The position numbers and the translations under genes were made by a program. A stretch of DNA of 20,000 nucleotides from an uncultured virus (IMG/VR IMGVR_UViG_3300030339_000027) (lineage: Duplodnaviria; Heunggongvirae; Uroviricota; Caudoviricetes): the IMG/VR virus record IMGVR_UViG_3300030339_000027. One strand, written 5' to 3'. The notes under the pieces were generated by a model. That model had not been told where the DNA came from. It worked only from the letters and a program-made list of their open reading frames with translations, and ran no database searches. Shown here one piece after another: positions 3 to 17,594 of the stretch (position 1 is its first letter; each line of letters starts with the position of its first letter).

Positions 3-722
3 TATAAAGAACATCCTCTTCTAAAAAACAATGCTTTTATACATTCATTCGATATTGATAAGAAAAGAGATCCTTTAACTGGTAAAAACAATAAGTTCTA
101 TAAGCTTCCTATGAATATATTAAATGTAAATGAAGCTAATACTCATAAGTTTAATAGTTACTTAATTGGATTTTCAGACTTAGCTAAAATTGAGTATAAT
201 GGAGTTAATATACAGAATTTATTATTCTTATATAATACTTTTATTCACAGGGATAAAATTAATAGAGACTCTTTAACAAAATTGTTTGAATCTTCTACCT
301 CTGGTATTGAACATACTATGATGGGTGATTTTATTAAATGGGCTGGAGATTTTGATTGGAATGAAAAAGAATTACAATCTTTATCCGAATCTAAAGAGTA
401 TGATTATGATATAGACGATATTATAATTAAAGGATTGGCTACTAAGATCTTCTCAAAAAACTTGGATAGAAATGTAGGAAAATATGCTTATGCAGTCTTG
501 TATAATGCTTCTACAGGAGAGTCTACAAAGCAATATTATGAGTGGAACAATAGTGCTAGTACTTATCAAAAATATGATCACTTTAGTAGTGATTTAGCAA
601 TAGCTTCTAGTGCGGGATCACAAATTGGAGTACAAAGAGGAAATGCAAATGACTTTAATGCTACTTTAAGAGAAATCTCAAATAGAGGAATAATAATAAA
701 CAATGTAAAAATAGAATGTTAA
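3..722 (+). CDS. C-terminal part of a large phage protein (5' truncated); by position possibly the virion RNA polymerase or a related cargo protein
   Basis: The frame is open from base 3 (YKEHPLLKNNAFIHSF...) through the listed Met at 111, so the gene starts before the window. It ends ...NNVKIEC-TAA, 1 nt before the next ATG. No catalytic motif is visible. Confidence 0.7.
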   Translation, partial: YKEHPLLKNNAFIHSFDIDKKRDPLTGKNNKFYKLPMNILNVNEANTHKFNSYLIGFSDLAKIEYNGVNIQNLLFLYNTFIHRDKINRDSLTKLFESSTSGIEHTMMGDFIKWAGDFDWNEKELQSLSESKEYDYDIDDIIIKGLATKIFSKNLDRNVGKYAYAVLYNASTGESTKQYYEWNNSASTYQKYDHFSSDLAIASSAGSQIGVQRGNANDFNATLREISNRGIIINNVKIEC

Positions 723-723
723 C

Positions 724-3700
724 ATGGCATGTACACTAACGTTCACTTTAGGTGGAATAAAATATAATATACCTGCAGAAGGTAATCTTGCTGATTATGA
801 CGGAAAAAACCTCACAGATATATTAGGATCTTTAGATTCTCATACACAAATTAATTTATTAGAGAATATTTTAAAATATTCTAACATTCAGCCGTATGAT
901 TATGAAGAAAATCCAACTGTAACTAATTTAATAGCTTCTAATAATATTCCGAATATTAGTGTAAGCAAGTTAACAGAAAAATTAGGAGATTTAGTTTTAC
1001 CTGATGGATCTAATCATTTTAAATTACGTCAAGTAGTTTTAAGTATGTTAAATGAAAAGACTGATAAAATATCTTTAGTTTCTGCACAAATCACAGATGG
1101 TTCCAAAAAAGGACATGGAGTATTTATTTCACAAACTGGAAGTATCTATGTGCATGCTAAACCTAATGATAAAATTGATACTCTTGAGGATTATTTTTTA
1201 GGAAAGGATAGCAAAGTCTTACTAGAACGTCTTGCTCATGAATTAACTCATAGTAAATTAGATGCATTAATGGTTAATCAACCAGAACTTGCCAAGGAAT
1301 TAGTTGAGGAATGGAATTCAAAAAAAGGAGGATTATCTGATGAATTTAAGAGTATTAAAAGTAGTATTGACAAGTTAAAAACAAATGAAGCAAAAGCAAA
1401 CGAAATTATTGCTTATTACTTTAGTGATTTCCAATTACAAGGGGCTTATCAAAGTAAAACACTAGAAGATGCTTTTAAAAGTATGGTTTCAAATATAATT
1501 CCATTAGAAACAATAGTTTCTACTTCTACTCCTGGCTATTTTGATTCTTCCAATCCATATGAGGATTATGACCATTCTAGATATAAGAATCATTGGGATG
1601 ATCCTGTTTGGCAATATAGACATCCTGAATTAGAACCTCCATTCACAGGAGATACTAATGCTTCTCTTCAAAAAATGGTTGCAGAGATAGATCCAACTTC
1701 TGAGAATTACCAAGCAGATAAAGCTAAACAAATCTTAGCTAGATTTAATGCTAATACCTCTGATATTCAAGAAAATTCTGAATTTAAATACCAGAAATAT
1801 GATGTTTCTTATGGAGCACCTATTGTTATTGATGATTTTAATAGAGATATTCAAATCTTAAGATTAGCAGAAAATGACTTGGTATTAGTAAGTAAAGATA
1901 TCTTCCTAAATCCCAAAACAAAAGAATGGGAAGCTAGGCCTACTAAAAAAGGTGAGGAAAAGTCTTCATATCGTCCTGTTATTAGTACTTATATTAATGC
2001 TAATAATGAAGTAATGATTAATCTACCTATTAAAGATGGTAGTGGTAAAACATATTCTCTACCAGCTAAGTTTGTAGAAAGTTTACGTAAATATGATGGA
2101 GATTTAATAGATACTCCTTATAATAAAGAAAAAGCTAAAGAATATGCAGATTGGATGGTTGCTAATGTAAATTCAGCATATGGTGATGATCCTGCCGATA
2201 GTTCTATAATTAGAACTATAGATATTACTTCTAAAACTGGAAAAAGCTTTCAAATTTCAGTGGCTTCTAACTATGAATCTTATGGATTTAAATTTTATAA
2301 CCAAGAATCTGCTAGAGAAATCTATGATGGAGCTGAAGTTGGAGATGTAGTTAAAGTGTTTATAAAAGAAAAAGGAGATAAGAAAGCGGGAGGATATCGC
2401 GCTAAAATACTACGTAAATTTGGAAACTCAGTTGAAGTAGTTACTTCTAAAGGTGCTGTACTTATTGTAAAACCCTCTGCTATCAATGAGGTAATCTATT
2501 TAAAAGAAAATCATCCAGACTTTTTATCACAAGTAGAAAATATTGATAAAGGGACTATTAGCCAAGATCTTATTGATGATGGTAATAGTCAATTTAGAAA
2601 ATATCGTAAAGTAAATTTTGTATCACAAAATAAAAAAGATGGGGAATTTCAAGATAAGATTAATGATTATTTTGATATTTATTCAAAAGAAGATTCTGCT
2701 ATTAAAGTAGAGAGACGTCGCGCTGAAGTTAAAAAACTTAAAGCCGGAGATCTTATAAAGGTTAAATGGTATTACACAGATACAAAAACTAAAGAAGATA
2801 GAGAAGTGTCACACTGGTATCCAGTAGTTACTAAAACCTCTGATTTAGTTTACTATTACAATTCTACTTCTGAGAAAGTATCTTCTGTGAATATTTTAGA
2901 TGGTAAAGGATATGAAATCTATGGATTAGCTATAAATAATACAAATTCTTCTAAATTATTTGATGAATTTAATGAAATCAGAAAAAGTATAGAAGGATTA
3001 CGTAGAGATGATACTGGTACATTACTCTCAGATGATGCTATTAAAAATAACTTAGGAGAAGCTCTTAGAAATGCAGAACCATCTAGTTTACAAGACATTT
3101 ATCATATCACAGAAATAGAAGATGTAGATGAAGTAGCAGCTGGAGAAGATAATGACCTTAAATTATCAGTATCTCAAGTACAAAGAGGTAGTATTGTTAA
3201 AGCCTATGTATTTGATATAGATGAAGAAGGTAGAGACAAAAAAACTAAAATTTATAAATGGTTTGTAGTAACTGGCTTTGATGAAAACACTGGAAGACCT
3301 ATATGTGTTACACAAACTAAAGATAAAAATGGTAAAACTGGTGTATATAAAGAATATCCAATTGAATTTCAGAATATTAAAGCAATAGGTCATAGATTAA
3401 CTGATAATGCTGATTTAGGAATTTATGGAAATAAAACTCTAAAAGAATACTTAGATAAGTTAAGAAAAACTTTTGATACTATTAGTGAACCTATTTTTAT
3501 TACTCAAGCTGAAACTCCTAAATATGAGAGATCAAATAGAACTTTTAACACAGCTTTATATGGTTTACTTAAAAACGGAAAGATGGGTTATGCAGTGTCT
3601 GATAAATATGTAATAGAACAATTTAAAGATAAGACTGATTTTGAAGAATGGAAGAAAAATACACCAGAAGCTAAAGGATTAACCTGGACTTATACTGAAC

Positions 3701-4908
3701 CTAAGTTGTATATTTTAAGAGGTAAACAATATATGAAGAAACTCTATATGAATTACTTAGAAGTACACGGTTTACTTAATTATGAACCCAACATACATGA
3801 TAGTGTAAGAATTGGTGATATAGTTACTGAAACATGGAAGTACCAAGGAGATGATGTTAAAATGGACTCTATGATTACTGCTAAAACTCCTACAGGATTA
3901 TGGGTGGAACGTTTAGGAAAAAGTCCTTCAGGGGATTCTATTTCGGTTAGAAAAAAGATATATAGACATAGAGAAGGAGTTGAATATCCTCAGATCTCAG
4001 ATGTATACTTACATAAAAAACGTGATACTACCTCAACTTCTAGAGAAGACGCTAAAAGTAGACAAACTAATCTTTTAATTGGTAATACTCAGTATGAAGA
4101 GAAGATTAAAAATCTAGATCAGGAAACTAAAGAAAGAAAAGCAAGTACTTTAAAAAAACCACTTAAAGCTTCTTTAGATACTGATAATTTCTATAAGAGT
4201 AGAGATTCGGAAAGTAAGATTATGGAAATTGTAGATAAACTACAATCTACTTATAATGTGCCTATTATAATGCTTAGAACTAATGAGATTGCTCAAAGTT
4301 TTGGTGATATTTTAGGAACTGATGCTACTAAAGTTAGAGGATTTATAAATGAGGGTAAAGTTTATATAAATTTAGATAAAGCTTCTTCTGCAGAACCTCT
4401 ACATGAGATGGCACATATTATATTAGAGAGTATTAAAGCCAATGACTATAATTTATATCAAACGGTTATTAATTCTGTTAAGTCTCATCCATACTATGAT
4501 GCTATAGCTAAAAATTATCCTAATAGGGCCCCGGAAGACTTAGATGAAGAAGTATTTGTTTCTATTTTTGGAGAAAAATATAGAACAGTTACTCATAATC
4601 AATATAATAAGTCTTGGTATGATCAAAATGAAAGTATATTTACAAATATCTGGAATTATATGAAAAATACTTTTGCTTCTATTTTTGACAATAAATCTAT
4701 CTTGGATATTCCAAATGAAAAGCTTGCTATGATGCCTTTAGACGAATTAATTAGTACCTTTGGGGACAATTTGATGGAAGGTAAATTTAAACACGTTTTA
4801 AATTATGATACATCAACTCTTGAGAGAAAAGTGACCAATTTAAAGACAAATCTTTTATCAAATGAAGATGAATCAGAAAGTTACCTTAGAAAAACTTGTA
4901 ATACTTAA
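724..4908 (+). CDS. Large (1394 aa) putative virion cargo protein with two zincin-like HExxH domains and internal SH3/KOW-like repeats
   Basis: LAHELTH at 1237-1251 with downstream ANEIIA. PLHEMAH at 4402-4416 preceded by RGFINEGKVYINLD and followed by DEEVFV. Repeated (G/N)D/S-hydrophobic beta-strand motifs lie between them. Confidence 0.8.
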   Translation: MACTLTFTLGGIKYNIPAEGNLADYDGKNLTDILGSLDSHTQINLLENILKYSNIQPYDYEENPTVTNLIASNNIPNISVSKLTEKLGDLVLPDGSNHFKLRQVVLSMLNEKTDKISLVSAQITDGSKKGHGVFISQTGSIYVHAKPNDKIDTLEDYFLGKDSKVLLERLAHELTHSKLDALMVNQPELAKELVEEWNSKKGGLSDEFKSIKSSIDKLKTNEAKANEIIAYYFSDFQLQGAYQSKTLEDAFKSMVSNIIPLETIVSTSTPGYFDSSNPYEDYDHSRYKNHWDDPVWQYRHPELEPPFTGDTNASLQKMVAEIDPTSENYQADKAKQILARFNANTSDIQENSEFKYQKYDVSYGAPIVIDDFNRDIQILRLAENDLVLVSKDIFLNPKTKEWEARPTKKGEEKSSYRPVISTYINANNEVMINLPIKDGSGKTYSLPAKFVESLRKYDGDLIDTPYNKEKAKEYADWMVANVNSAYGDDPADSSIIRTIDITSKTGKSFQISVASNYESYGFKFYNQESAREIYDGAEVGDVVKVFIKEKGDKKAGGYRAKILRKFGNSVEVVTSKGAVLIVKPSAINEVIYLKENHPDFLSQVENIDKGTISQDLIDDGNSQFRKYRKVNFVSQNKKDGEFQDKINDYFDIYSKEDSAIKVERRRAEVKKLKAGDLIKVKWYYTDTKTKEDREVSHWYPVVTKTSDLVYYYNSTSEKVSSVNILDGKGYEIYGLAINNTNSSKLFDEFNEIRKSIEGLRRDDTGTLLSDDAIKNNLGEALRNAEPSSLQDIYHITEIEDVDEVAAGEDNDLKLSVSQVQRGSIVKAYVFDIDEEGRDKKTKIYKWFVVTGFDENTGRPICVTQTKDKNGKTGVYKEYPIEFQNIKAIGHRLTDNADLGIYGNKTLKEYLDKLRKTFDTISEPIFITQAETPKYERSNRTFNTALYGLLKNGKMGYAVSDKYVIEQFKDKTDFEEWKKNTPEAKGLTWTYTEPKLYILRGKQYMKKLYMNYLEVHGLLNYEPNIHDSVRIGDIVTETWKYQGDDVKMDSMITAKTPTGLWVERLGKSPSGDSISVRKKIYRHREGVEYPQISDVYLHKKRDTTSTSREDAKSRQTNLLIGNTQYEEKIKNLDQETKERKASTLKKPLKASLDTDNFYKSRDSESKIMEIVDKLQSTYNVPIIMLRTNEIAQSFGDILGTDATKVRGFINEGKVYINLDKASSAEPLHEMAHIILESIKANDYNLYQTVINSVKSHPYYDAIAKNYPNRAPEDLDEEVFVSIFGEKYRTVTHNQYNKSWYDQNESIFTNIWNYMKNTFASIFDNKSILDIPNEKLAMMPLDELISTFGDNLMEGKFKHVLNYDTSTLERKVTNLKTNLLSNEDESESYLRKTCNT

Positions 4909-4918
4909 AATAATATAA

Positions 4919-7900
4919 ATGAGTAAATGTAAATTCACCTTAACAGTAAAAGGTAATAATATAGAATTTGATACTGAAGAACAATTAAATTCATATCTTA
5001 AAACCAATTATGACACTCTTTCTAGAGGTCATATTGGCGGAGATGTGGAATTATCTACTGTATTAGAAGGGAAAGAAAAGACAAAATTAGAACAAACTGT
5101 GGCTAAATTACAAACCATTGCTTCAAAGACTCCTGAGATAACTACTGTAGAGTTTAACGAGAATGGTGAGAGAGTAATTAAATCAGCCTATGAAGGTGTT
5201 ACTAAAAGAATAAAGCGTCTTGCAAAAGCCGGGGGATTACCTGTGACTTATTATGATGAAAAAAATTATATTGATAATAGATTGATTCAAATACGAAGCG
5301 CACTTCGTAGGGGGGTAGGTCCGGAAACTTTAAAGGCAGACTATGCTAATATTATCTCTAAATTTACCACAGGAGTTGAGCAATTAAAAGGAGCAGAGTC
5401 TGAAACTTATGATAAGCTAACTAAAGCTCTTATTATGCCTTTAATTATTAAAGAACAGGCACAAAGAAAATTATTGGGAACATTTGGAACAAACTTACAT
5501 AGAATGGCAGAGACATACTTTGCAAACAGATTAGAAAACTCAGATAAGTCTTTTTCCATTGGTAATTTCCCCGCAGGTATTACAAATCTTTCTACAGAAG
5601 GAAAAGAAAATTATTTACAGTATTTAAAAGAATTAACTAACTTTTTAAAGTCAGAACATGGAGATGATGTAGTTCTTCTCCCAGAATATAAAATATTTGA
5701 TGATGCTACCAAATTAGTAGGAATTATTGACTTATTAGCAATAGATAGTATGGGTAAAGTTCATATTTATGACTTTAAAGCCTCATATAAAGATCCTTCT
5801 GATTGGCATTCAGCTAAACAGATTGAATTTAAATATCAATTAGGCATTTATTCTAATATGTTGAAAAATAAAGGATTTGATGTACGTGGAATACAGGTTT
5901 TACCTATTACCATGCTTGATATTAATTTTGATGATGAAACTATTCCAAGATTAGCCGAACATCTTCCTTTTGATGCAAGTCCCTCTGAAGATATTAAATA
6001 TAATATCAATAATAGTGTTATTCCTTTAACAACTGCTGCTTTCTTTGAATCTACATCTAATAGTCATGCTATTATCACTGAAAATCTAAAAAAGGCTTGG
6101 GGATACAATTTAAAATTAAAATCATCCTACGCTAATGTTCAAGCTTTTAAAGATAGTAGTAGAGTTACAACTGATATAAATAAACCTGGAGTATTCACTT
6201 TCTGGGATAATATTAAACGTAAGTTTATTGATAATACTGCTGAGAGTTTAGATAAAAACATTGAGAATTACTTAAAATCAGAAGCTGAGGCAACCTCTTC
6301 TGAGTTACTCCGTTTTAAAGATTGGATGATTGCCTCTATTGCTGGGAAAAAACAACTTATAGACTTCAAAAGAAGAAGTGAGATAGGTAATATTCATATG
6401 GTAAGAGCTTTTGAAAAATATACTAAAGGAGGATGGACTTTAGTTGCAGATGATGCAGATCTAGATAGTTTAGGACTTTTAATGTTTGTAAATGAATCTA
6501 ATAAGTCCGTAGAATTTGTATCTTATACAGTAAATGCTTTAAATAAAAAGGTTAAACTTCCAATTGGTTCTACTATAGTAGGAAACTTTATTTCTGATGG
6601 TAAAGGACTTGAATTACCTGATTTATTACCAGCTACAAATGGCAACATAGAATTATTAAAGACTTATTTCTATATTAATGAAAATGCAGAAAAATTAAAA
6701 GATTTTACTGTAGGTAGAGTTATGGCTTATAATCCAATTAATTCTGAATTTGTAGTAAATAACAATGATGTGCTTAAAACTAATTTTGGATATTTAATCT
6801 CTAGATTAGAAGGTAAAAATACAACTTTAGAAGTAAATACTACTGATAAATTATTAGCTCTTCATAATCAATTTGTTGAAATTATAACTGAACCTTCTAC
6901 TTCACAATCAGAAAAAGATTTAGTGAATAAATACTTAACCACTTTAAATGATTACCAGAACACTGGCCGTATGGAGAGTCTTAAAATTATACAAAAAGAT
7001 TTACATATGTTATTGAACAAATATGGTCAACATAAAGTAAATAGTTTTATGTTATTTGAGGAAAAACTCTATGGTATGATCAGTGAGGCTATTGTAGCAG
7101 AAGCTGACTTAAGAATTTCTACCTCAGAAAAAGATATTCCTAAATATAGTGCAAATGGTACTATGCTTTCTAATCCTGGAAGTATTGGCTCTCGTAATTT
7201 ACGTGTATTTGTGGATGTAATTAAGTTATCTATGCATAAAATACGTAGAAGACAAACTGAATTCAAAGCAACTAACGTTGAGATCTTTGATAAGTATCTA
7301 ACTTCTAAAGGAAAAACTAATTTACGTAGAGCTACTGTTGGAGACAACATTAGGGCTTATGATTCTTTGTTTGAGGGAAATTCTCCTAATAAAGAACTTA
7401 TTTTAAAGAATCCATATGATAAAAATACTCCACTAAATAATGAGGAAAGAGAATTTTTAAAGTATTTCTTAAAAGAAATTAATTTTAGAAGATTTAACAC
7501 TCAATCTCTTGATTCTGAAACAGCTCAAGACATGATTTCAAGTAAGGAATGGTTTAAATTGCCTTTATTAAGAGCATCTAGTTCTTCAAAAGCTTCTAAT
7601 ATGAGTCTTAAAGGATTAAGAGATGCTACTACAGAAAATTGGAATAGTTTCTTAAATACTAATCACTTATTTGATGAGAAAGATGAACAAGCTGTAAAAA
7701 ACAGAAGTGAGGATATGTTTACTATGTTTAATGAGTTTAATTTTCATGCACATCCTGATGCTCGTATGAAATTGATCGAGCAGCAGAGTCCTAATGCATT
7801 TGAAACTAATTTAGAGAGAGTTTTAGACAATTTTGTATTTTCCGCTATTAGAAAAGAAGAATATGATGACATGTTACCTATTGCTAATGCTGTACGTACT

Positions 7901-9349
7901 ACTATCGCTTATAATGGATTTGGAGTAAACATTCCAGTTCCTAATGCCTTAGAATTTATGGATAAGTACTCACAAGCAGCTGTTTTCAATGAAAAATCTA
8001 TACCACCTGAATTAAGAGGAGTATACAAAGGGATTAGTATAATTAAGGATATTACTAGTAAAATGAACTTAGGTATTAACCCATTAAGTGGTTTTGTTAA
8101 TACTTTACAGGGTTTATGGGGTAATGTGTCTAGAATTACTGCTGGTAAGTACCCAAACATGTTCGGAAAAGAAGATTATTTTTGGGCTTTGAATCATTTT
8201 TGCAAAGATTCCTCTGAATCTATGACTAAATTGACTGTTTTGGAGAATTTAAACATGATTTATGGTATCAATAATATGGATATTAATATCCTCTCAGAGG
8301 TCATGTCAAAGAATAATAGTGGTCTTTTAAACTTCAAATCCAAGTATTTATACTGGATGGCGTATGCTCCTGACTATTTTAATCGTATGACTCTTTTTAT
8401 TGCTCAAATGCATAAAGATGGTTGTTTTGAAGCTCATAAGATGGTTGGAAACCAAATGGTATATGATTGGACACTTGATAAAAGATTCTCTGAGTATGCT
8501 AAAGGAAACACTTCACACCCAGACTATAATAATCAATTCTCTTTATATATGGCTGTTTTAGCTGATTTTAATAAAGAAGGGTATGCCTTAACAAAAGGAC
8601 AAGCACTACCTTATGCTTATACTGGAGCGCAAAGAGAGAGTATGAAAATGTTCTCTGATAGTATTCATGGTTACTATGACCATGAAAGTAAAACACTTGC
8701 AAATAATACTATTTTAGGGGTTTTATTCTTTCAGTTTAAGACCTGGATTACTGCTAAAAAAGATCAATGGGCTCTTCATCCTGATACATATGCTATTGGG
8801 GATTATGGACCACTTGTCTTAGATGGGGTAAAGCAATTTATAGATAAAGATGGAAATCAGACTACTGAAGATACTGGTATGCCTATGATGAAAATGCAAG
8901 GCTCTTTTCAAGAGGGTATATTATATTCATTAAAAGGTATGGCTCAAGATTTTCAAGAAGCTAAATGGGATATTGGTAAATTATGGGAAATGACGAAAGA
9001 ACATCCTGAGAGAATGTCTAATATGAAATTAATGCTTTTTGATTTAGGAGTAGTTATAGCTATGGCAATTACAACAGGTCTTATTGATTGGGATCAACTA
9101 AAAAAAGATGACACTTATGCTTATACTATGTATAGAGCCATTATCAGATCTAGTTCAGATTTAAATGTTTTAAATAACGTTACCACTGTATTAGATATGA
9201 AAAAGTCACCATTTATGTCGTTTAACTATATGGGAGATTTAATTTATGGGATGGGACCTGTATTAACAGGTGATCAAGATTTCTCTAAATATCTCTTCAC
9301 AAATACTGGTCTTTTGAGGCCGTTTACACCGCTGCTTGCAACAAAGTAA
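4919..9349 (+). CDS. Large (1476 aa) putative virion cargo protein with an N-proximal PD-(D/E)XK (RecB-like) nuclease domain and a hydrophobic C-terminus
   Basis: Motifs FGTNLH, PEYKI, GIIDLL, IYDFKAS and QLGIY at ~5483-5851. Hydrophobic segment LMLFDLGVVIAMAITTGLI at ~9029-9085. Confidence 0.8.
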   Translation: MSKCKFTLTVKGNNIEFDTEEQLNSYLKTNYDTLSRGHIGGDVELSTVLEGKEKTKLEQTVAKLQTIASKTPEITTVEFNENGERVIKSAYEGVTKRIKRLAKAGGLPVTYYDEKNYIDNRLIQIRSALRRGVGPETLKADYANIISKFTTGVEQLKGAESETYDKLTKALIMPLIIKEQAQRKLLGTFGTNLHRMAETYFANRLENSDKSFSIGNFPAGITNLSTEGKENYLQYLKELTNFLKSEHGDDVVLLPEYKIFDDATKLVGIIDLLAIDSMGKVHIYDFKASYKDPSDWHSAKQIEFKYQLGIYSNMLKNKGFDVRGIQVLPITMLDINFDDETIPRLAEHLPFDASPSEDIKYNINNSVIPLTTAAFFESTSNSHAIITENLKKAWGYNLKLKSSYANVQAFKDSSRVTTDINKPGVFTFWDNIKRKFIDNTAESLDKNIENYLKSEAEATSSELLRFKDWMIASIAGKKQLIDFKRRSEIGNIHMVRAFEKYTKGGWTLVADDADLDSLGLLMFVNESNKSVEFVSYTVNALNKKVKLPIGSTIVGNFISDGKGLELPDLLPATNGNIELLKTYFYINENAEKLKDFTVGRVMAYNPINSEFVVNNNDVLKTNFGYLISRLEGKNTTLEVNTTDKLLALHNQFVEIITEPSTSQSEKDLVNKYLTTLNDYQNTGRMESLKIIQKDLHMLLNKYGQHKVNSFMLFEEKLYGMISEAIVAEADLRISTSEKDIPKYSANGTMLSNPGSIGSRNLRVFVDVIKLSMHKIRRRQTEFKATNVEIFDKYLTSKGKTNLRRATVGDNIRAYDSLFEGNSPNKELILKNPYDKNTPLNNEEREFLKYFLKEINFRRFNTQSLDSETAQDMISSKEWFKLPLLRASSSSKASNMSLKGLRDATTENWNSFLNTNHLFDEKDEQAVKNRSEDMFTMFNEFNFHAHPDARMKLIEQQSPNAFETNLERVLDNFVFSAIRKEEYDDMLPIANAVRTTIAYNGFGVNIPVPNALEFMDKYSQAAVFNEKSIPPELRGVYKGISIIKDITSKMNLGINPLSGFVNTLQGLWGNVSRITAGKYPNMFGKEDYFWALNHFCKDSSESMTKLTVLENLNMIYGINNMDINILSEVMSKNNSGLLNFKSKYLYWMAYAPDYFNRMTLFIAQMHKDGCFEAHKMVGNQMVYDWTLDKRFSEYAKGNTSHPDYNNQFSLYMAVLADFNKEGYALTKGQALPYAYTGAQRESMKMFSDSIHGYYDHESKTLANNTILGVLFFQFKTWITAKKDQWALHPDTYAIGDYGPLVLDGVKQFIDKDGNQTTEDTGMPMMKMQGSFQEGILYSLKGMAQDFQEAKWDIGKLWEMTKEHPERMSNMKLMLFDLGVVIAMAITTGLIDWDQLKKDDTYAYTMYRAIIRSSSDLNVLNNVTTVLDMKKSPFMSFNYMGDLIYGMGPVLTGDQDFSKYLFTNTGLLRPFTPLLATK

Positions 9350-9392: not shown

Positions 9393-10079
9393 TTATGAGG
9401 AAAACATTTTAAAATATTCAGTGATTGAGGTACCTAAAGCATCTACAAAACCTTTTTTAGCTCGATCTGAATGTTTAGTACCATCAAACCAATCTTTTAC
9501 TGTACCTGTGCCAAGTAAATGAGCTGCAGCAGCCATTCCATTCTCTGTAATTGGTATTCCTTTGAAACTAGTGCCTATATACTTCAAGTAAGGGGTCAAC
9601 TTTTTAAGATTAATAGTTTTATAATTCAAAGCAGCATTATGTTGTGCATTTAAATCTGTATCATAATCTTGAGCAAGAATACCCACAGTTTTTAAACTAT
9701 CATCATTAAATTGATATAGTCCTCTGTAAGATCCTTGTGTAGCAGTAGGTATTAAAGAGGATTCTCTTAATCCTAATTTATATAAATAGTCTTTATTATA
9801 CTCAGAAGTAGGTAACTGCTTTATTGATTGTATACTCTGTTGGACAGTTGGATTATTGGTATTAAAAGGGACTTTTTTCTTTACAGGATAAGGAGTTTCT
9901 TCAGTAGGTCCATCTATTTCAGTCGATCCACCAGCTATTCCAGGTAATCCTGCCATAAAGTCCATATATTCTTTTAAATAAGGAGAGGGTTCTGGTATAG
10001 TAGAATCTATGCTTGTGGGTTTCACACCATTACGATAATTATTGATTTTTTCTTTAGAGGATTGATTAAGTAGGTCCAT
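9393..10079 (-). CDS. Lysozyme-like / lytic transglycosylase-fold peptidoglycan hydrolase
   Basis: Catalytic-helix LRESS, then GLYQF, AAAAHLLGTG and DALGTSITEY motifs. The N-terminal ~75 aa are Pro-rich and low-complexity. Confidence 0.8.
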   Translation of the reverse strand: MDLLNQSSKEKINNYRNGVKPTSIDSTIPEPSPYLKEYMDFMAGLPGIAGGSTEIDGPTEETPYPVKKKVPFNTNNPTVQQSIQSIKQLPTSEYNKDYLYKLGLRESSLIPTATQGSYRGLYQFNDDSLKTVGILAQDYDTDLNAQHNAALNYKTINLKKLTPYLKYIGTSFKGIPITENGMAAAAHLLGTGTVKDWFDGTKHSDRAKKGFVDALGTSITEYFKMFSS

Positions 10080-10099
10080 GTTCTTAGTTTTTGTTCAGA

Positions 10100-10130
10100 C
10101 AAAAATACGAAAAAAAAATACCCCACGCAA
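10100..10130 (-). promoter_or_regulatory. Bacteroidota primary-sigma promoter (-33 TTG / -7 TAnnTTTG)
   Basis: On the minus strand: TTG (10130-10128), a 20-nt spacer, then TATTTTTG (10107-10100), 20 nt upstream of the ATG at 10079. Confidence 0.7.
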
Positions 10131-10153
10131 GACTTTCGTCTCACATGGGGTAT
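10110..10153 (-). terminator. Intrinsic terminator
   Basis: Minus-strand RNA AUACCCCAUGUGAGAC-GAAA-GUCUUGCGUGGGGUAU followed by U8. The 16-bp stem has 3 G-U wobbles that pair only on this strand. Confidence 0.92.
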
Positions 10154-10155
10154 AA

Positions 10156-10395
10156 TTATTTTTCAATAGGTTTTCTAAAGGATCTTTTGATTTGATTAGA
10201 AAAACTAGGCTTGATTATCTGTCGTTTCTGTTTCCTAGATAATGTCTGGAATTTTTCCATAGTCTCAAGCATTTTTTTGTAATTTTCAGAGCTGTTTTGA
10301 ACTTCTTCCATTGTAGTAGGAGTACTAAAATCAAACGCTGGATCTCTATCATTGAGATTGTTTTCTTCTGAGTAGTTTATTAGTCTATCTTGCAT
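10156..10395 (-). CDS. Hypothetical protein (79 aa)
   Basis: Fills the operon gap, has an A-rich leader, and its stop sits immediately before the terminator. Confidence 0.7.
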   Translation of the reverse strand: MQDRLINYSEENNLNDRDPAFDFSTPTTMEEVQNSSENYKKMLETMEKFQTLSRKQKRQIIKPSFSNQIKRSFRKPIEK

Positions 10396-10401
10396 TTTTT
10401 A

Positions 10402-10596
10402 TTAATTAATAAATAACTGCCCATCTTCATCGACTTTTATCGAGCATGCACAATTAATTCCTCGTACACCTTCATCCACTTCAATATCATCAGAAAGCTT
10501 ACCATTTCCAAATTTAATTTGAACAAAATAAGCAGACCAAAATCCTGGATAAATTCCAGGAGCTATTATTGGATATTTTTCTAAACTTTTAGCCAT
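10402..10596 (-). CDS. Hypothetical protein (64 aa)
   Basis: TAATG overlap with the helicase stop codon. Confidence 0.7.
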   Translation of the reverse strand: MAKSLEKYPIIAPGIYPGFWSAYFVQIKFGNGKLSDDIEVDEGVRGINCACSIKVDEDGQLFIN

Positions 10597-11984
10597 TATT
10601 TGTAAATATGTGCTTTATGAGAAGCTCTAGAATAAGCAACATACTTAATCTTGTTTTTCTCAGCAATGTTAATATTTTTATTGATATTAGGTTCACTTAT
10701 AAAAGTATTAATATAAGTACTACCTTGTGCTTTATGACAACTTACAGCATAACCGTAATCGATGTCTTTAGTCTTTTTACTACCACTAGTGCAGTCTTGC
10801 ATAAGAGAATGATTTTCTTTAAAAGGAAAGTATTCTTCTGAGAAGCATTTTCTTCTATTTTTACTTTTTGGTGCAAAATGAAGTGCTTTTTGTAGTAATT
10901 CATCATGAGTTCTTAAGTAAGCCCACTCTCCTTTTAATGTAGGTTCTACTATAAAAATCTCATGCACAGTTATTCCACCCACTTCTTGTAATCCAGTAAT
11001 ATATCCTGGAACATTAAATGGACTCATAGCCCACTCAACCTTTTTTACTAGATAATCTTCTGAATTTTTTATAATAGCACCAGTAGCATCTCTTCCAATA
11101 TTAGAGTAACTCATTAATACATCTCCTATTACTAAGGGAAGAGTTTCCTCTGGAAATCTCATCTGACGTATGATAGTGTTCCATTGCCTTACTGATGCAT
11201 TGGTCCATGTAAGTAATTTAGCATACAAAGGATTCTCAATATACTCTTTCGAGCAGAATTTTAAGGCAAGTTGTTGTTTAAACTCTTCTAGATTAAACAC
11301 TTCTAACCCTTCTCCTAATGTATTTAATATAGTTTTAATCTCTACTTCATCAAGACTTTTTGTAGAATCTCTTAGCATATCATTTAATATAAGTAAAGGA
11401 TTTCCATCATTTTGTCTCTCAATTTTTGTTAAGGAGAATCTGGAGAGTTTTTCAGTAAAAACTTTACTTATCTTTTCTTTTATAGGGGGAATTTGAGCAG
11501 AATCTCCAATGAAGATTATCTTAACTCTAGTTCTTTTAGCTATAATCTTCAAATAATCAAAGAGATCATCATTAATCATAGAGGCCTCATCAATGATGAG
11601 AATCTCATATAGACTAATTTCATCTCGACCTGTTGGGTCAAATTGTAAATTATTTATATCAAAGTTCTCTACGTTTAAATTAGGAGAAAGGCCAAGGAGA
11701 GACTGTAAAGTCCTTCCTTGTTCCCCCGTAAATTTAGAGATCACTTTTAATGCTTTATGAGTAGGTGCTGAAACTACAGCATCTAATTTTAAAGAGTCTA
11801 GTAGTTTTTTAATACTACAGCTCTTACCGGTACCAGCAAAACCTTCAAGAACAAACATTTGCTCCTTAGTTTGAAGCCATGCTTTTATTGTTTCTATTGC
11901 TTCTATCTGTTGAGGATTCAGAGTTATCAGAATCCCGGATGGAAGAAGTAATTGATCATCAGGTAAATTATTCGTCAGTTTCAC
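10596..11984 (-). CDS. dda: SF1B DNA helicase, Dda/RecD-like
   Basis: Walker A GFAGTGKS, APTHKA, IIDEASM, GDSAQIPP, LTKIERQ, YGYAVSCHKAQGST and YVAYSRA. The GTG start overlaps the ligase end. Confidence 0.92.
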   Translation of the reverse strand: MKLTNNLPDDQLLLPSGILITLNPQQIEAIETIKAWLQTKEQMFVLEGFAGTGKSCSIKKLLDSLKLDAVVSAPTHKALKVISKFTGEQGRTLQSLLGLSPNLNVENFDINNLQFDPTGRDEISLYEILIIDEASMINDDLFDYLKIIAKRTRVKIIFIGDSAQIPPIKEKISKVFTEKLSRFSLTKIERQNDGNPLLILNDMLRDSTKSLDEVEIKTILNTLGEGLEVFNLEEFKQQLALKFCSKEYIENPLYAKLLTWTNASVRQWNTIIRQMRFPEETLPLVIGDVLMSYSNIGRDATGAIIKNSEDYLVKKVEWAMSPFNVPGYITGLQEVGGITVHEIFIVEPTLKGEWAYLRTHDELLQKALHFAPKSKNRRKCFSEEYFPFKENHSLMQDCTSGSKKTKDIDYGYAVSCHKAQGSTYINTFISEPNINKNINIAEKNKIKYVAYSRASHKAHIYK

Positions 11985-13125
11985 GTATACACTTGAATAT
12001 AGGTAGATTAGGCACTCCTTTTGGTGAGAGATGGAAGAATTTAATAGTAGCCATTTTTCCTATATAATCTTTAATATTTTCAAGATATTCAACTCTTTTA
12101 GCCACATTACCTGTGGGTTTAGCTTCAAATGCTATTCCTTTATCAGTAACTAAAGTGAACACCATATCCTCAGGACGAAGTCCTTTAGAACAACCGGTAA
12201 TTTTAAACTCTGCATCTTGCATGAGTTTTACCTTAATCATACGTTTATCACGCCCACCTATTTTATATGTAGCAGAAGCGTCTCTCCAAATACCTCCTTC
12301 ATAACCTTCTGAAATCCATTGGTCGTGGAGTTTCATAATAGTATCTATATCTTCAGATTCAATCTTAATGTGTTCAACTATAACTACTTTATCAGTAGTA
12401 GGTTGGATTTCTTTAAGAATTTTAAGTCTCTGCTCAAAAGTTAAGTCATCTGCTACAATATCAAAAATCCAATACTGTAAAGCATCATGTCTCTCCGGAA
12501 TATATTCTCTTTTGCGGGCATGTCCAGAAATTTCATCTAAGAATTTCCCGTGACAATATATTTCACCATCTAGTTGATAATCTGGATACTTGTCAAAGAA
12601 AGTCTTAAAACAACCATCTTTAACTATTTCAGTACAAGCAGGATCATAGTCCTTACCTCCTCTGCTTACAGTACCCATAAGTTTTTTAACCATCCTTACT
12701 CCGTCAAGTTTACGTGAAAGATAACCTATCTTTCCATTAATTATACGTAGTATTCTAGTTATAATAATTTTTCTAGCCTCATCTTCAGAGACTAATGAAT
12801 CTATTTTACCTCTAGAATCTAGAGCTAACATAGGTTTTTTATTTCCGTTTCTATCTGTTTTGTGTTCAATAAGGTCAGTAATCTCATCTTTATATCCTTT
12901 GTCATAGGCTTTATTTATAAGACTATTAAATTCTAATTCCATTTGAGTTTTAATACATCTACCTGCTTTTCCTATCTTTATTTCTAAAGTAGGTTGAGAG
13001 ACATCTGTTCCTCCAACTAAACCAGAGGATCTTTTAATTTCATATCCAGGAAATTTATCAATAACTTGAAAAGACACATATCGTGTCTTTCCTTTGCTAT
13101 CAACATTATACAATGTTTTATCCAT
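11968..13125 (-). CDS. ATP-dependent DNA ligase
   Basis: Motif I RKLDGVR, III LDGEIY, IIIa YWIFD, IV EGGIWR and V IKVK, followed by an OB-fold C-terminus. Confidence 0.93.
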   Translation of the reverse strand: MDKTLYNVDSKGKTRYVSFQVIDKFPGYEIKRSSGLVGGTDVSQPTLEIKIGKAGRCIKTQMELEFNSLINKAYDKGYKDEITDLIEHKTDRNGNKKPMLALDSRGKIDSLVSEDEARKIIITRILRIINGKIGYLSRKLDGVRMVKKLMGTVSRGGKDYDPACTEIVKDGCFKTFFDKYPDYQLDGEIYCHGKFLDEISGHARKREYIPERHDALQYWIFDIVADDLTFEQRLKILKEIQPTTDKVVIVEHIKIESEDIDTIMKLHDQWISEGYEGGIWRDASATYKIGGRDKRMIKVKLMQDAEFKITGCSKGLRPEDMVFTLVTDKGIAFEAKPTGNVAKRVEYLENIKDYIGKMATIKFFHLSPKGVPNLPIFKCIRETDE

Positions 13126-13444
13126 TTTTGTGATCTTCTATAAATTTGTCTAATAAAGATAATGCTTTCATTCTATCAGAATAATATCCGGACATTATAG
13201 CAGTTTTTAATTCTTCATAAATATCTCTTAAAGTATTTATCGGCAAGGGTTTTATTACCATAGGAATTATTTCTTTATACATAATTCCAGTTTCATCACT
13301 TCTCTCTGAGGGTAAACAACATGTATTAGAACATTCCCCTTTATATTCAAAATAACATCCAGCACATCCTTCTAATGGGTCAGGCACAACCATAAGAGTA
13401 ATACCTTTATAATCAAATGTATCCCCAATTTTATGCTCTTCCAT
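13118..13444 (-). CDS. Hypothetical Cys-rich, probably metal-binding protein (108 aa)
   Basis: Motif GCAGCYF-x5-CSNTCC-x4-RSD. Overlaps both neighbouring genes. Confidence 0.75.
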   Translation of the reverse strand: MEEHKIGDTFDYKGITLMVVPDPLEGCAGCYFEYKGECSNTCCLPSERSDETGIMYKEIIPMVIKPLPINTLRDIYEELKTAIMSGYYSDRMKALSLLDKFIEDHKNG

Positions 13445-14303
13445 AAATTATAAGATTTCTTGGTATATTATAAGGATTATTTCGTTTGAAATCAGAAGCA
13501 TCATGTCGTTTTTTAATTTTCAAATATACTTCTTCTTTTACAGTTGTAGGAAATCTAACCATCTTTAAAAGACATTGATCTACTTCAGCATAACTAGAAG
13601 CACCTAGTTGATCTAAATCACTATTTGTAATGCCTAGACCATCTGTAGGAGTAGCATCTATACAAGCTCCTAAAGCATAAGCTTCAGCTTGTTTATCTTC
13701 TAATTCCAATTGATTTACTAAATACTTAGATAAACCATATACTTCTGTTTTCCAGAGATTTTGAAACATTCCATAGTCACCAACGTCACCATGTAAAGTC
13801 CAGAAACCTAATAGATACTCAGTAAAGTTATCTGTGGAGAGAACCATGCCTTTATTATACTGAGCTAGATTGTAAAGATAAATCATTCTCATACGAGCTT
13901 TAATGTTACCCATACGTATCTTTTTCTCAAATTCTGATTCTTTTTTTAAAGGATCTATAATAAAAGTATCCATAGTGTGAGATAATTGCTGAAAAGGAAA
14001 TCCCAGATCCATCTCATGAAATTGAGTACAAAAATGTTTACCTATACCTAAGGCACGATTAATCTCATCTTTGTGATTACTCTGAATCGGAATACTTACT
14101 CCAATTAAAGGTATATTTAATTCATCACAAATAGGTTTAGCTAAAACTGCGCATAAAGCAGAATCAATACCTCCTGAAATTCCTAATACTAGAGATTTTA
14201 ATCCACTATTAGATAAGTAATCCATCAATTCTTTTCTTATGTTATCACACATCAATTCATAATCAGTTTGAATTTCTAATTGATACGTTGTATCTGTTAT
14301 CAT
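13431..14303 (-). CDS. nadE: NH3-dependent NAD+ synthetase family protein (no glutaminase domain)
   Basis: PP-loop LGISGGIDSA, GNIKARMRM, STDNFTE, GFWTLHGD, KTEVY, PTDGL and DLDQLG. Confidence 0.93.
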   Translation of the reverse strand: MITDTTYQLEIQTDYELMCDNIRKELMDYLSNSGLKSLVLGISGGIDSALCAVLAKPICDELNIPLIGVSIPIQSNHKDEINRALGIGKHFCTQFHEMDLGFPFQQLSHTMDTFIIDPLKKESEFEKKIRMGNIKARMRMIYLYNLAQYNKGMVLSTDNFTEYLLGFWTLHGDVGDYGMFQNLWKTEVYGLSKYLVNQLELEDKQAEAYALGACIDATPTDGLGITNSDLDQLGASSYAEVDQCLLKMVRFPTTVKEEVYLKIKKRHDASDFKRNNPYNIPRNLIIYGRA

Positions 14304-15451
14304 AATTTTAATTCTTTTTTACAGGTTATTATTTCTTCCGAATCACCAGTATTTTTTCCCAGATCATCTGAGATTTTAACTGTATGCTTATCACCAACTT
14401 TACTTAATTTAATTACTATATTTAAAGGTTTTATTCCAGTAATATCATTGGTTATATAAGTACCCACACCATAAGTTTTATCCAAGGTGGCATTAGGTCT
14501 ATAAGAGTCAATTGCATTAATTTTCTCTAAATTTAGAGAATCACTATACATCACTCCTTTAGCTTTTGCAATTTTATTGTCAAGTAAATATTTCAAAACT
14601 AAATCAGTATAAATTAATGGATCACCACTATCTTGTCTAAAACCATCTAATTCTCTAGCATCTTTAGGATCTAAATTACTAAAGAAATGTGTAGAAGTAT
14701 AAGTGTCTGTTAAGACTATATTTAACTTTTTATCATACACAGTTTTCCAAGTTTTCATAGCTTTTTCATTAGCTAAGATATATCCAAATTTAGCACCATG
14801 AAACATTATCCATTCATGAGCAGTAGTTCCTTTAATAGGAAGATTATGGATCATTCCAAAATACATATTACTGGTTCCTCTTAAACCATTATTCATTTTT
14901 AGAATACTGATAGCTAAGGATTGTGCTAATTTAGAAAATCTTCTACGAGTCCCAAACTCAATAATATGATAGTCTTTTTCAGACATAATCCTTCCTTTTT
15001 CGGCAGTACGAGTTTTAAAATCACTTAAACTTGTATTAGGATTTTCAATTTCAAAATATACTTGTGAAATTATAGCCATAAGTGGAACTTCCCAAAGGAT
15101 AATATTTTTCCAATTTCCTTTAATTTTTATAGATAAATTAGAACCTGATCCTGTAATAATTACATCTTCCGGATTAAATCTATAATTTTTAATAAATTCA
15201 AAAAAATCTTCGTCAAATAGAGAACCTAAATCTTTTCTTAAAAAAAGTTCTTCTATTTGAGTTAAACTAATATTTGACATAAGTTTAACTTGTTCTCGAA
15301 TTTCTGCACATACTTCTGGGGAAAATTCTCTTTTATCTCTATTATGGAATGTATACTCAACCTGTTCTGTAGGATAAGTTTTTAGTACAGCATTCAACAT
15401 TGTGCATTTGTACAAATCATTGTCTAAAAGACTAGTTATTATTTGGTTCAT
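14300..15451 (-). CDS. pncB: Nicotinate phosphoribosyltransferase
   Basis: SLLDNDLYK, EFGTRRR, GTSN, GTTAHEW (phospho-His motif), LTDTY, RQDSGDP, SDSLN, GVGT, IVIK and KISD. These are PncB-type signatures, not NAMPT (DSYK/AxEHS). Confidence 0.93.
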   Translation of the reverse strand: MNQIITSLLDNDLYKCTMLNAVLKTYPTEQVEYTFHNRDKREFSPEVCAEIREQVKLMSNISLTQIEELFLRKDLGSLFDEDFFEFIKNYRFNPEDVIITGSGSNLSIKIKGNWKNIILWEVPLMAIISQVYFEIENPNTSLSDFKTRTAEKGRIMSEKDYHIIEFGTRRRFSKLAQSLAISILKMNNGLRGTSNMYFGMIHNLPIKGTTAHEWIMFHGAKFGYILANEKAMKTWKTVYDKKLNIVLTDTYTSTHFFSNLDPKDARELDGFRQDSGDPLIYTDLVLKYLLDNKIAKAKGVMYSDSLNLEKINAIDSYRPNATLDKTYGVGTYITNDITGIKPLNIVIKLSKVGDKHTVKISDDLGKNTGDSEEIITCKKELKL

Positions 15452-16433: not shown

Positions 16434-16898
16434 TTAAATTAACGGGATTGAATCCCCATATTTTTTATTAAGTGCTTTATTTATACCATCCAGAATTACT
16501 CTTGTTTCTGGGGTTACTCCGTCTACACTTGTAAGACGAAACATTTTTTTCCATTCATATTTAGAACCACTTACATAAAAATCTGTTCTTATCCCTAGTG
16601 GTAAAATTTTGAAGGCTATTTTAGGGGAAACCCCTGCTGCAATCAAACTGAAGTAATTAACTTCTGCTGCTGCACATCCATCATGATATATTAATTCTGC
16701 TAAAGAATTTTCTATCATAGTTTCAGGAGTGATGATAGAGATTTCATCTGCCCTAATATCATCTGAGATTGTTTTAACTTCTATATAAGAACTTATTTCT
16801 CTACAAACTAATGCATCACTAGTTATTGCAACTATTATGTTATCAGTCTCTCTAGATAATAAATCTATAATTTCAAAATGTGGTGTTATATATTTCAC
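16434..16898 (-). CDS. Degenerate ThyX-fold protein, probably catalytically inactive
   Basis: YFSLIAAGVSPKIAFKILPLGIRT...EWKKMFRL...PETR follows the ThyX C-terminal pattern, but RHRxxS is absent. GTGA overlap at the start. Confidence 0.65.
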   Translation of the reverse strand: MKYITPHFEIIDLLSRETDNIIVAITSDALVCREISSYIEVKTISDDIRADEISIITPETMIENSLAELIYHDGCAAAEVNYFSLIAAGVSPKIAFKILPLGIRTDFYVSGSKYEWKKMFRLTSVDGVTPETRVILDGINKALNKKYGDSIPLI

Positions 16899-17155
16899 TC
16901 TTCATTGGTTTTATAAGTAAAAGTCTTAATATCTGCACTTTGATGAAAACCATTTGCTTGACAAGATGGTTTAAATACTGTAACTTTTATTTCATAACAG
17001 TCTTCCACTTCATTGTAAGATAATCTGGTTTCACTACCAATAGTCTCACATTTTACAGTAGTAATAACTCCATGATTTCTAGAACCTACTCTACTTGCAG
17101 TTCCTTTACTTCCATACACATCACCAAACATAAAAAGTCCTTTAGGTTTAGCCAT
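16895..17155 (-). CDS. Hypothetical protein (86 aa)
   Basis: The likely start is the ATG at 17155 (MAKPKG), overlapping the dut stop, rather than 17194. Confidence 0.65.
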   Translation of the reverse strand: MAKPKGLFMFGDVYGSKGTASRVGSRNHGVITTVKCETIGSETRLSYNEVEDCYEIKVTVFKPSCQANGFHQSADIKTFTYKTNEE

Positions 17156-17594
17156 TAGCTTTTCTCCCATCGGTACCAGTATGGCCAAAGCCACCCTCGC
17201 CTCTTTCTGTTTCAGATAGTTCTACTGATTTTTCCCATTCTATTGACAAGACTTCAGCCCAAACAAGTTGAGCAATTCTATCTCCAGGATTAATTGTAAA
17301 TGGATCTTTAGAGAGATTTACAAGAATTACTTTGATTTCTCCTCTGTAATCAGCATCTATGGTTCCTGGGCTATTTAAGACCGTTACACCATGTTTAAAA
17401 GCTATTCCAGACTTTGGTCTCACTTGTATCTCAGATCCCTTAGGAACCTCTACAAATAGACCTGTAGGAATAGCAGCTCTCTCAAGCATACCTAAAATAA
17501 TAGGTTCTGTAATATTGGCACTAACGTCCATTCCCGCTGCCCATCTAGTTTCATATCTAGGCAATGCATTATCTGATTTGTTTATAATTTTCAT
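17148..17594 (-). CDS. dut: Trimeric dUTPase
   Basis: All five motifs present: AGMDV, RPKSG, GTIDADYRGEI, RIAQLV and RGEGGFGHTG. Confidence 0.96.
   Translation of the reverse strand: MKIINKSDNALPRYETRWAAGMDVSANITEPIILGMLERAAIPTGLFVEVPKGSEIQVRPKSGIAFKHGVTVLNSPGTIDADYRGEIKVILVNLSKDPFTINPGDRIAQLVWAEVLSIEWEKSVELSETERGEGGFGHTGTDGRKANG

Follow-up and report, generated by a model that had tools for sequence, protein, structure and literature searches.

The DNA considered here is a 20,000-nucleotide (nt) stretch of an uncultured virus (IMG/VR record IMGVR_UViG_3300030339_000027), hereafter called the window, which corresponds to bases 59328-79327 of the 115,598-base viral record (31% G+C) and carries the end of a row of five giant genes, A to E, all on the plus strand. 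Wherever two of the five encoded proteins face each other along this row, the upstream protein has a cysteine at or close to its C-terminus and the downstream protein has one close to its N-terminus. The favored explanation, which is held with moderate confidence, is a head-to-tail disulfide tether of a cargo polyprotein that has undergone fission into separate genes.

The record uses the standard genetic code and is estimated to be about 65% complete. Judged by its gene content it is a member of Crassvirales, because it encodes a crass-type major capsid protein (PF23898 Crass_capsid, E 1.6e-15), a muzzle protein (PF25731 crAss_MUZ, E 2.6e-26), a large terminase, and a portal. A first-pass annotation, made from the window, had considered three giant proteins; these are the last three of the row (C, D, and E), so that the two junctions visible in the window become four in the whole record. 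Two cysteine-free genes, encoding 1364 and 605 amino acids (aa), lie upstream of the row. Proteins A-E most likely constitute the crassvirus transcription/cargo module, which would be packed in the capsid and then injected, either before the DNA or together with it. The present record has been read as genes only; that homologs of A-E are found in virions, and that the comparable cysteines of phage A4 discussed below form a disulfide, are results taken from published work on those phages.

Paired terminal cysteines in the row of giant proteins

The facing ends at the four junctions read ..NTCN and MRNNC (A/B), ..ENCNG and MDKGC (B/C), ..KIEC and MAC (C/D), and ..KTCNT and MSKC (D/E). Thus, a cysteine lies within 5 residues of the end at all eight junction-facing ends, and at neither of the two outer ends of the row (the A N-terminus and the E C-terminus). 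Cysteine makes up 0.18% of A-E (16 of 8957 residues, 8 of the 16 being junction-facing), compared with 0.96% of the other open reading frames (ORFs) of the record. Among the 57 other ORFs of at least 150 aa, none has a cysteine in its first 5 residues and 4 have one in the last 5. The first-pass annotation had pointed out the terminal cysteines of C, D, and E and the rarity of cysteine elsewhere in them. Every residue and coordinate that it gave is correct when the sequence is read again, and a recount returns the same tally: one cysteine in the 239 residues of C that lie in the window, three in the 1394 residues of D (positions 3, 861, and 1392), and three in the 1476 residues of E (positions 4, 1095, and 1169).

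Conservation across relatives

A search of 1.84 billion cluster representatives (50% identity) with residues 1-1200 of E yielded 595 matches, the best 150 of which were analysed. Within these 150, a cysteine is present in the first 6 residues of 134; the first cysteine is at residue 2-5 in 133 and at or before residue 10 in 139. Just 1 of the 150 has a cysteine in its last 8 residues, and the overall cysteine content is 0.34%. An early cysteine is missing from 11, including five (P0012, P0015, P0101, P0112, and P0137) that are N-terminally cut, as judged by their length and matched range. Cys4 of E is invariant in the alignments numbered A2, A4, and A6 (the second of these is distinct from the phage A4). 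The D homologs found, P0005-P0007 (70%, 53%, and 26% identity), keep both terminal cysteines in three of three cases, and the internal Cys861 is a glycine in the two close homologs, P0005 and P0006. The ..KIEC terminus of C is kept in loci L003 and L011. Each type of junction also has its own motif beside the cysteine (..LKExC before E, and MxxCxYxL..NG at the start of E, within an E-family N-terminal pattern of C-x-[YF]-x-[LI]..(N)G..F-x-S-E-x-E-L), a feature of these sequences that fits cognate docking.

Two scans of viral contigs provided the rows of genes in relatives. The first (alignment A2) gave 80 loci, 6 of which lacked a whole E-like ORF and were excluded, leaving 74 that fall into 18 clusters; the second, directed at another clade (A8), gave 79 loci, 76 with E, of which 47 belong to the old clusters and 29 form 19 new ones. 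Together they comprise 159 viral loci and 37 clusters. In this survey ORFs of less than 250 aa were ignored, starts were placed at the first ATG, a junction with a gap of -80 to +40 nt was called tight, and a cysteine was counted when it lay within 6 residues of the end. Each cluster is represented by its locus with the most tight junctions, a choice that is biased toward complete rows and not toward cysteine.

Cysteines are found on both sides at 35 of 36 tight junctions in the first-scan representatives (the other has one on the upstream side only) and at 0 of 5 loose ones; counting all 74 first-scan loci, the figures are 126 of 127 tight and 0 of 50 loose junctions. The second-scan representatives have them on both sides at 35 of 35 tight junctions, and of their 5 loose junctions, 3 have no cysteine, 1 has a cysteine on both sides, and 1 on the upstream side only. 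For the 37 representatives pooled, 70 of 71 tight junctions are paired, and the sole exception, in L011, is a start-codon artefact, since the second methionine gives MDKGC. Similarly, a 354-aa ORF (MASC...EEFCS) appears in L135 when TAG is read as glutamine, and in L143 the sequence ..ANCLIKD is in frame just past stops, which points to a non-ATG start. The free ends of the row behave as they do in the present record. The first-pass annotation had observed that the last protein lacks a C-terminal cysteine; this is true of E and of the E proteins of all 37 representatives (0/18 in the first scan and 0/19 in the second). At the other end, no cysteine occurs in the first 10 residues of A homologs from five other clusters (0/5), all of which start M..NDW... 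The feature is conserved down to 25-30% protein identity, and so the retention of the terminal cysteines in homologs, which the first-pass annotation had set as a check on its idea, extends to distant relatives.

The same arrangement is present in two cultured crassviruses. In crAss001, gp47 (2341 aa) has a single cysteine, third from its end; gp50 (2412 aa) has cysteines 5, 1334, and 2404; and gp49 (1349 aa) has a single cysteine at residue 5. In phi14:2, the single cysteine of gp078 (1797 aa) is its last residue, gp077 (2180 aa), the RNA polymerase (RNAP) whose structure has been solved (PDB 6VR4), has only cysteines 3 and 2179, and gp076 (1421 aa) has only cysteine 3. Consequently, these three phi14:2 proteins contain 4 cysteines in 5398 aa, all of them junction-facing. 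All three are annotated in the phi14:2 record as virion proteins detected by tandem mass spectrometry (MS/MS), and for crAss001, whose virions have been analysed by mass spectrometry, gp45, gp46, gp47, gp49, and gp50 are listed as cargo (Bayfield 2023, PMC10172136; this paper, PMC12002296, and PMC13434306 are cited here from excerpts). The first-pass annotation had proposed that the proteins are linked in gene order, like a split polyprotein. The matched cysteines are those of a split polyprotein, but the order is that of the protein modules and not strictly that of the genes, because crAss001 gp47, which is encoded about 11.6 kb from the gp50 start and on the strand opposite to gp50 and gp49, has the matching C-terminal cysteine.

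No description of a terminal cysteine rule for crassviruses was found in the literature (main texts; phi14:2 by its 2020 preprint). The word 'cysteine' occurs 0 times in PMC10172136, and 'cysteine' and 'disulfide' occur 0 times each in the 2020 phi14:2 preprint and in Yutin 2021 (PMC7886860).

Apart from the small number of cysteines involved, nothing speaks for the idea that their placement is a matter of chance or a by-product of composition. With cysteines placed at random within each protein, the probability of finding one within 5 residues of all eight junction-facing ends of A-E is 2.4e-17; in the 18 first-scan representatives, 71 of 216 cysteines lie within 6 residues of an end, compared with 2.03 expected; and the placement persists at the low levels of identity given above. 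A chance origin can therefore be treated as negligible.

Interrupted and fused genes as natural controls

Eight loose breaks have no cysteine on either side, and all of them are in genes that are unbroken in relatives. The loose breaks examined have either a LAGLIDADG ORF inside or a match to a group I intron model. In MT835470 (L004), where the interrupted gene is unbroken in close relatives, a LAGLIDADG_2 endonuclease ORF (E 2.3e-26) occupies the gap and has a group I intron match on either side, the two matches being colinear and sub-threshold (E 0.0034 and 0.014). For the L056 gap, the match to the group I intron model is full-length (40.9 bits, E 5.8e-9, which is below the Rfam cut-off of 50). 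In one L024 gap, a LAGLIDADG-like ORF was recognised by eye from its motifs; a search of two L024 breaks with Rfam gave no match.

Fused genes, which the first-pass annotation had suggested looking for, are found at two points of the row. B and C form a single protein in seven loci (L012, L018, L026, L032, L078, L081, and L088), and none of the seven has a cysteine at the aligned B/C break, which in the present record falls in a variable linker. In P0068 and P0087 the module that ends D forms one protein with E, and both of these fused proteins have a cysteine at residue 4 of the new N-terminus. At this site the split L061 reads ..KDLKEFCG followed by MGCIYDYKGHVF, whereas the fused P0068 reads ..GKLTKAENGYILEGHLF; a linker of about 5 residues replaces ..C(x) + M(x)C. 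The long fused proteins P0154, P0147, and P0151 have one cysteine each, near the N-terminus. Because the pair comes with the split, goes with the fusion, and is absent at the outer ends, and because N- and C-terminal counts balance, the best reading of these sequences is that the cysteine pair behaves like a substitute for a peptide bond. Taken together, the comparative evidence strongly supports matched C- and N-terminal cysteines of the kind expected for a split polyprotein.

The same transitions bear on the possibility that each terminal cysteine engages a third party needed by every new end, such as a scaffold, a modifying group, or a protein of the portal or the capsid interior. Sequence evidence does not by itself name the partner of each cysteine, and the cargo proteins of crAss001 contact the portal and the tail barrel (PMC10172136). 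However, the outer ends of the row lack the cysteine: it is missing from the E C-terminus in all 37 clusters, and from the N-terminus of A in the record, in five of five other clusters, in crAss001 gp47, and in phi14:2 gp078. Furthermore, at a break neither the N-terminal nor the C-terminal cysteine is ever gained or lost without the other, and their counts always balance. A third party is consequently quite unlikely.

The cysteine codons could also mark where ribosomes leave and rejoin the message in a programmed hop or frameshift that generates a fused polyprotein. The two codons are separated by only 4 to 44 nt, and a stop often comes directly after the upstream one, as it does after the take-off codon of T4 gene 60. 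Against this, an ATG is present 1 to 4 codons ahead of the downstream cysteine in 134 of the best 150 representatives, the two cysteine codons are identical at 77% of 70 junctions when 75% is expected from codon usage, the position of the cysteine relative to the stop varies from -1 to -9, and crAss001 gp47 and gp50 have matching cysteines despite their location on opposite strands. A bypass of the T4 gene 60 type was rejected on the grounds of codon identity, the presence of the ATG, and the opposite-strand pair, and hopping or frameshifting in general is very improbable.

Protein-level joining was considered as well. A split intein or trans-splicing was rejected, since C, D, and E have no Hint or intein match in Pfam and since the linker of about 5 residues is all that distinguishes fused relatives from split ones. 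The identity of residue 2 decides whether the initiator methionine stays on a protein, and in the E family this residue is often K, L, D, N, or E. By this rule the methionine is probably kept. The cysteine is then not at the very start of the protein, and a chemistry that needs a free N-terminal cysteine is disfavored.

Other observations on the giant genes of relatives concern their insertions, their decoding, and the head of the row. The intron and LAGLIDADG insertions in the polymerase genes vary between near-identical contigs, being present in some and not in others, and one L024 break falls directly after the DxDxD catalytic motif. Stop codons are reassigned in the giant genes of many loci: in the first scan TGA is read as tryptophan in 42 of 80 loci (the TGA=W loci are L024, L028, L042-L049, L052-L060, L062, L065-L080, L083, and L087) and TAG as glutamine in 1, and in the second scan TAG is read as glutamine in 29 of 79 (the TAG=Q loci are L050, L094, L118-L143, and others, with L135, to which automatic code choice gave table 11, needing this reading for at least one gene). 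The N-terminal motif of A, M..(K)xNDW[LFV].A, is kept in six clusters (record 41789 onward and L173-L177), and may dock the free head of the chain.

Identities of the giant proteins

Protein B contains a DxDxD motif (DYDID) at residue 2265, and a profile of this region matches crAss001 gp50 (E 4.6e-12) and phi14:2 gp077 (E 3.6e-8). Single-sequence phmmer searches of B and C against the PDB gave no match, and A, C, and D gave nothing above threshold against Pfam and PHROGs. In relatives that have continuous RNAP-like proteins, C aligns to the section after the B-like part. Because C continues the B-like polymerase in these proteins, C is, as far as alignment can tell, the C-terminal piece of the virion RNAP, and the polymerase is split into B and C in the present lineage. 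By the same kind of comparison, stretches of the A-E module that are single polypeptides in some relatives are here cut into five.

Protein D has two HExxH motifs, the second of which belongs to a C-terminal module that is likely, from its sequence, to be a zincin-like metallopeptidase. In the alignment of this module (A3), C218 is invariant and H53, E54, H57, D98, E102, and E211 are nearly invariant; an SDxDEE motif downstream of HEMAH is conserved across the order. The 2020 phi14:2 preprint (Drobysheva) describes a zincin-like domain in the neighbour of the phi14:2 polymerase, and the D module matches it. In relatives this module closes whichever protein precedes E, and that protein ranges from 311 to about 2975 aa.

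Protein E has a predicted PD-(D/E)XK nuclease domain, for which Foldseek finds matches to MGME1, Exo5, and Cas4, and its C-terminal part is related to crAss001 gp49 (BLAST E 3.9e-5; family hidden Markov model (HMM) E 2.6e-9). An AlphaFold2 model of residues 1-450 (mean predicted local distance difference test score, pLDDT, of 80.9) places a beta-hairpin and a helix directly after Cys4, and this modelled element is a candidate for the docking site. The first-pass annotation had seen a beta-strand pattern shared by the N-termini of D and E. For E it is supported by the predicted strands at residues 6-10 and 13-17; as to the sharing, a comparison of the two N-terminal profiles by hhalign gives a probability of 44% over only 19 columns. 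Prediction of a complex between E(1-450) and D(1175-1394) returned scores of 0.32, 0.06, and 0.20, giving no verdict either way.

A proposed disulfide chain and its alternatives

A docked cysteine pair need not be covalent, because it could hold a metal ion (Zn, Fe, or Cu) together with other ligands, or could just pack. Such a clasp could make use of the glutamate that is near-invariant two to three residues before the C-terminal cysteine of the module preceding E (E211 in A3), and it would suit virions whose anoxic, reducing surroundings may not oxidise cysteines and a phage for which an oxidase was not found. However, each end has one cysteine, no conserved His, Cys, or Asp occurs within 20 residues after the N-terminal cysteine in 134 sequences, the plain peptide linker that replaces the pair in fused forms is what is expected for a covalent stand-in, and the equivalent pair in the cyanopodophage A4 (Anabaena phage A-4L) is a disulfide (PMC12002296). 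The first-pass annotation had kept a metal site beside the disulfide as an option; with one cysteine per end and no conserved His or Cys next to it, the disulfide is likelier, and the clasp is unlikely. The zinc hook of Rad50, an inter-chain clasp, takes a CxxC from each chain. A clasp of this type was rejected, as there is a single cysteine per end and no conserved second ligand. The disulfide is the simplest remaining reading, because a metal clasp, an intein, N-terminal cysteine chemistry, and hopping are all argued against.

The proposed chain would work as follows. At each cut, the upstream protein has a cysteine at its last to third-last residue and the downstream protein has one at residue 3 to 5, adjoining a short conserved candidate docking element; each such pair would form an intermolecular disulfide in the assembled particle. 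A-B-C-D-E would then be one head-to-tail thread of about 9,000 residues. The thread would keep the five proteins equimolar and hold them together in the cargo zone of the capsid; during ejection one protein would pull the next through the tail, and the reducing host cytoplasm would open the links, freeing the RNAP pieces and their partners. The bond itself, its timing, and its role in packaging, ejection, and release are what we infer from the pattern.

A more general proposal is held more loosely, as something possible rather than probable: crassviruses may inject their transcription machinery as one redox-cleavable thread made of as many as five giant proteins (here about 1 MDa), with junction-specific docking and a disulfide at each joint, passage through the tail in a fixed order, reduction in the cytoplasm, and subsequent assembly of the split polymerase. 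The exchange of a cysteine pair for a peptide bond would leave the module free to split and fuse.

Several considerations weigh against a disulfide chain. Conditions in the bacterial cytoplasm are reducing and gut phages encounter little oxygen; in addition, a comparison of 97 ORFs of this roughly 65% complete record with Pfam revealed no thioredoxin, glutaredoxin, DsbA, or Erv-type oxidase. A disulfide in crassvirus cargo proteins is a prediction that draws on sequence and on analogy. The C-terminal cysteine of crAss001 gp50 is 9 residues from the end and not 1 to 3, and the depletion of cysteine is not universal, since the large RNAP-like protein of some relatives has 8 to 20 cysteines. The clusters share ancestry, so that 37 clusters are not 37 independent events; the independent signal is that of several split, fused, and interrupted transitions. 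In the crAss001 map, the RNAP-associated cargo proteins are not resolved (PMC10172136). Finally, the A4 proteins gp26 and gp27 do not have detectable homology to A-E: the best BLAST E is 0.055, an HMM of the B N-terminus does not match gp26, and other profiles give E 0.17 or worse against the pair. The A4 precedent is a working analogy and not a membership, because of this absence of sequence homology.

Crassviruses are the most abundant human gut phages, and the question addressed here is how podophages pack, order, and deliver a megadalton protein cargo. The sequence rule predicts which ends touch, making the topology of the cargo testable in crAss001 and phi14:2. It also distinguishes genuine ends of proteins from artefacts of introns, endonucleases, and recoding in genomes that are hard to annotate, and offers a reason for the module's tolerance of frequent gene fission. 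If the reading is true, replacement of the peptide bond by a cysteine pair would explain the very variable gene boundaries across the order, and the injected proteins would form a multi-link covalent chain that goes well beyond the single bond of A4.

Feature coordinates and other genes

Table 1. Positions of the giant genes, their junction cysteines and domains, and insertions in the RNAP genes of relatives
Feature	Position	Strand	Description or basis
Protein A	record 41789-49945	+	2718 aa, first of row
Protein B	record 49945-57549	+	2534 aa
Protein C (protein 1 of the first-pass annotation)	record 57542-60049	+	835 aa; last 239 codons are window 3..722
Protein D (protein 2)	window 724-4908	+	1394 aa
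Protein E (protein 3)	window 4919-9349	+	1476 aa, last of row
C Cys835 codon, TGT	window 717..719	+	last residue, ..NNVKIEC; stop 720-722; faces D
D Cys3 codon, TGT	window 730..732	+	start MACTLTFTLGG; faces C
D Cys1392 codon, TGT	window 4897..4899	+	third residue from end, ..YLRKTCNT; faces E
E Cys4 codon, TGT	window 4928..4930	+	start MSKCKFTLTVKG; faces D
D HExxH motif 1, HELTH, residue 172	window 1237-1251	+	sequence motif
D HExxH motif 2, HEMAH, residue 1227	window 4402-4416	+	sequence motif
D C-terminal module, HExxH (zincin-like) domain and terminal helix-like tail to ..YLRKTCNT	window 4246..4905	+	alignment A3
E predicted beta-hairpin (residues 6-10, 13-17) and helix (20-29) directly after Cys4	window 4934..5005	+	AlphaFold2
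E PD-(D/E)XK nuclease domain, residues 186-341	window 5474..5941	+	PF12705 E 3.7e-6; PHROG 298 exonuclease
Insertions in relatives' RNAP genes	L004 13568-14627; L056 7378-7681; L024 5313-6232

Downstream of the row, the signal of a flavin-dependent thymidylate synthase (Thy1) is divided between two minus-strand ORFs (window 16434-18622): profile positions 13-58 match the end of a 343-aa ORF (17591-18622) and positions 96-187 match a 154-aa ORF (16434-16898), with a dUTPase gene (17148-17594) and a 99-aa ORF between them. The pieces may represent a thyX gene that is split or interrupted, or else a pair of remnants. Adjacent genes for NAD synthase (PF02540) and nicotinate phosphoribosyltransferase (PF04095, PF17767) lie on the minus strand at window 13431-15451, and this NAD salvage pair adjoins ligase, helicase, and nucleotide-metabolism genes.

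Two observations concern locus L093. At 1877-4110 (record ~98877-101110, minus strand), a 464-aa ORF matches positions 30-197 of the 381-position profile of family A DNA polymerase and is followed by a 281-aa ORF without a Pfam match, so this polymerase may be split as well. In the early region (10042-13018, minus strand), a protein kinase-like gene (PF00069) is close to a PP2C phosphatase gene (PF13672).

Comparison with known ejection systems

The crAss001 and phi14:2 modules are alike in occupying the same genome module, in having gp50- and gp49-related proteins, and in following the terminal cysteine rule; the present record differs in that the module is cut into five and the polymerase itself is split into B and C. 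For phi14:2, whose RNAP is named gp66 there, the 2020 preprint suggests that fused forms are 'likely cleaved'. The present data suggest the opposite problem, in which split forms are re-joined. Disulfides are known in crAss001 virions, where they lie between the tail hub and ring proteins (PMC10172136).

Capsid-packed ejection proteins are also found in T7 (gp14/gp15/gp16), P22 (gp7/gp16/gp20), and N4 (gp51/gp52/vRNAP), and like the cargo proposed here they pass through the tail in a partly unfolded state and a fixed order, either ahead of the DNA or together with it. They differ in that a covalent head-to-tail linkage is not described for them in the excerpts of the papers on which this comparison draws (PMC10172136, PMC13434306); in the 2026 N4 paper (PMC13434306), 'disulfide' and 'cysteine' occur 0 times.

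The closest parallel is the pre-ejectosome of A4, whose structure by cryo-electron microscopy reveals a disulfide between gp27 Cys1715 and gp26 Cys5 (PNAS 2025, PMC12002296). The C-terminal helix of gp27 inserts into gp26 (PDB 9K3A) and is fixed there by the S-S bond; the excerpts of that paper do not present the bond as a rule across phages (PMC12002296). In the A-4L record gp27 has 1717 aa and gp26 has 1114 aa, and each has only that one cysteine. The arrangement found in A-E is of this type, with near-terminal cysteines on the facing ends of otherwise cysteine-poor proteins. In A4, too, a cysteine 3 residues from a C-terminus is matched by a cysteine at residue 5 of the next gene product, and both are ejection proteins packed in the capsid. 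The difference is one of scale and cargo: A4, a T7-like podophage of 41.7 kb, has one link between two proteins, whereas the crassvirus modules would have a chain of 2-4 links that includes an RNAP.

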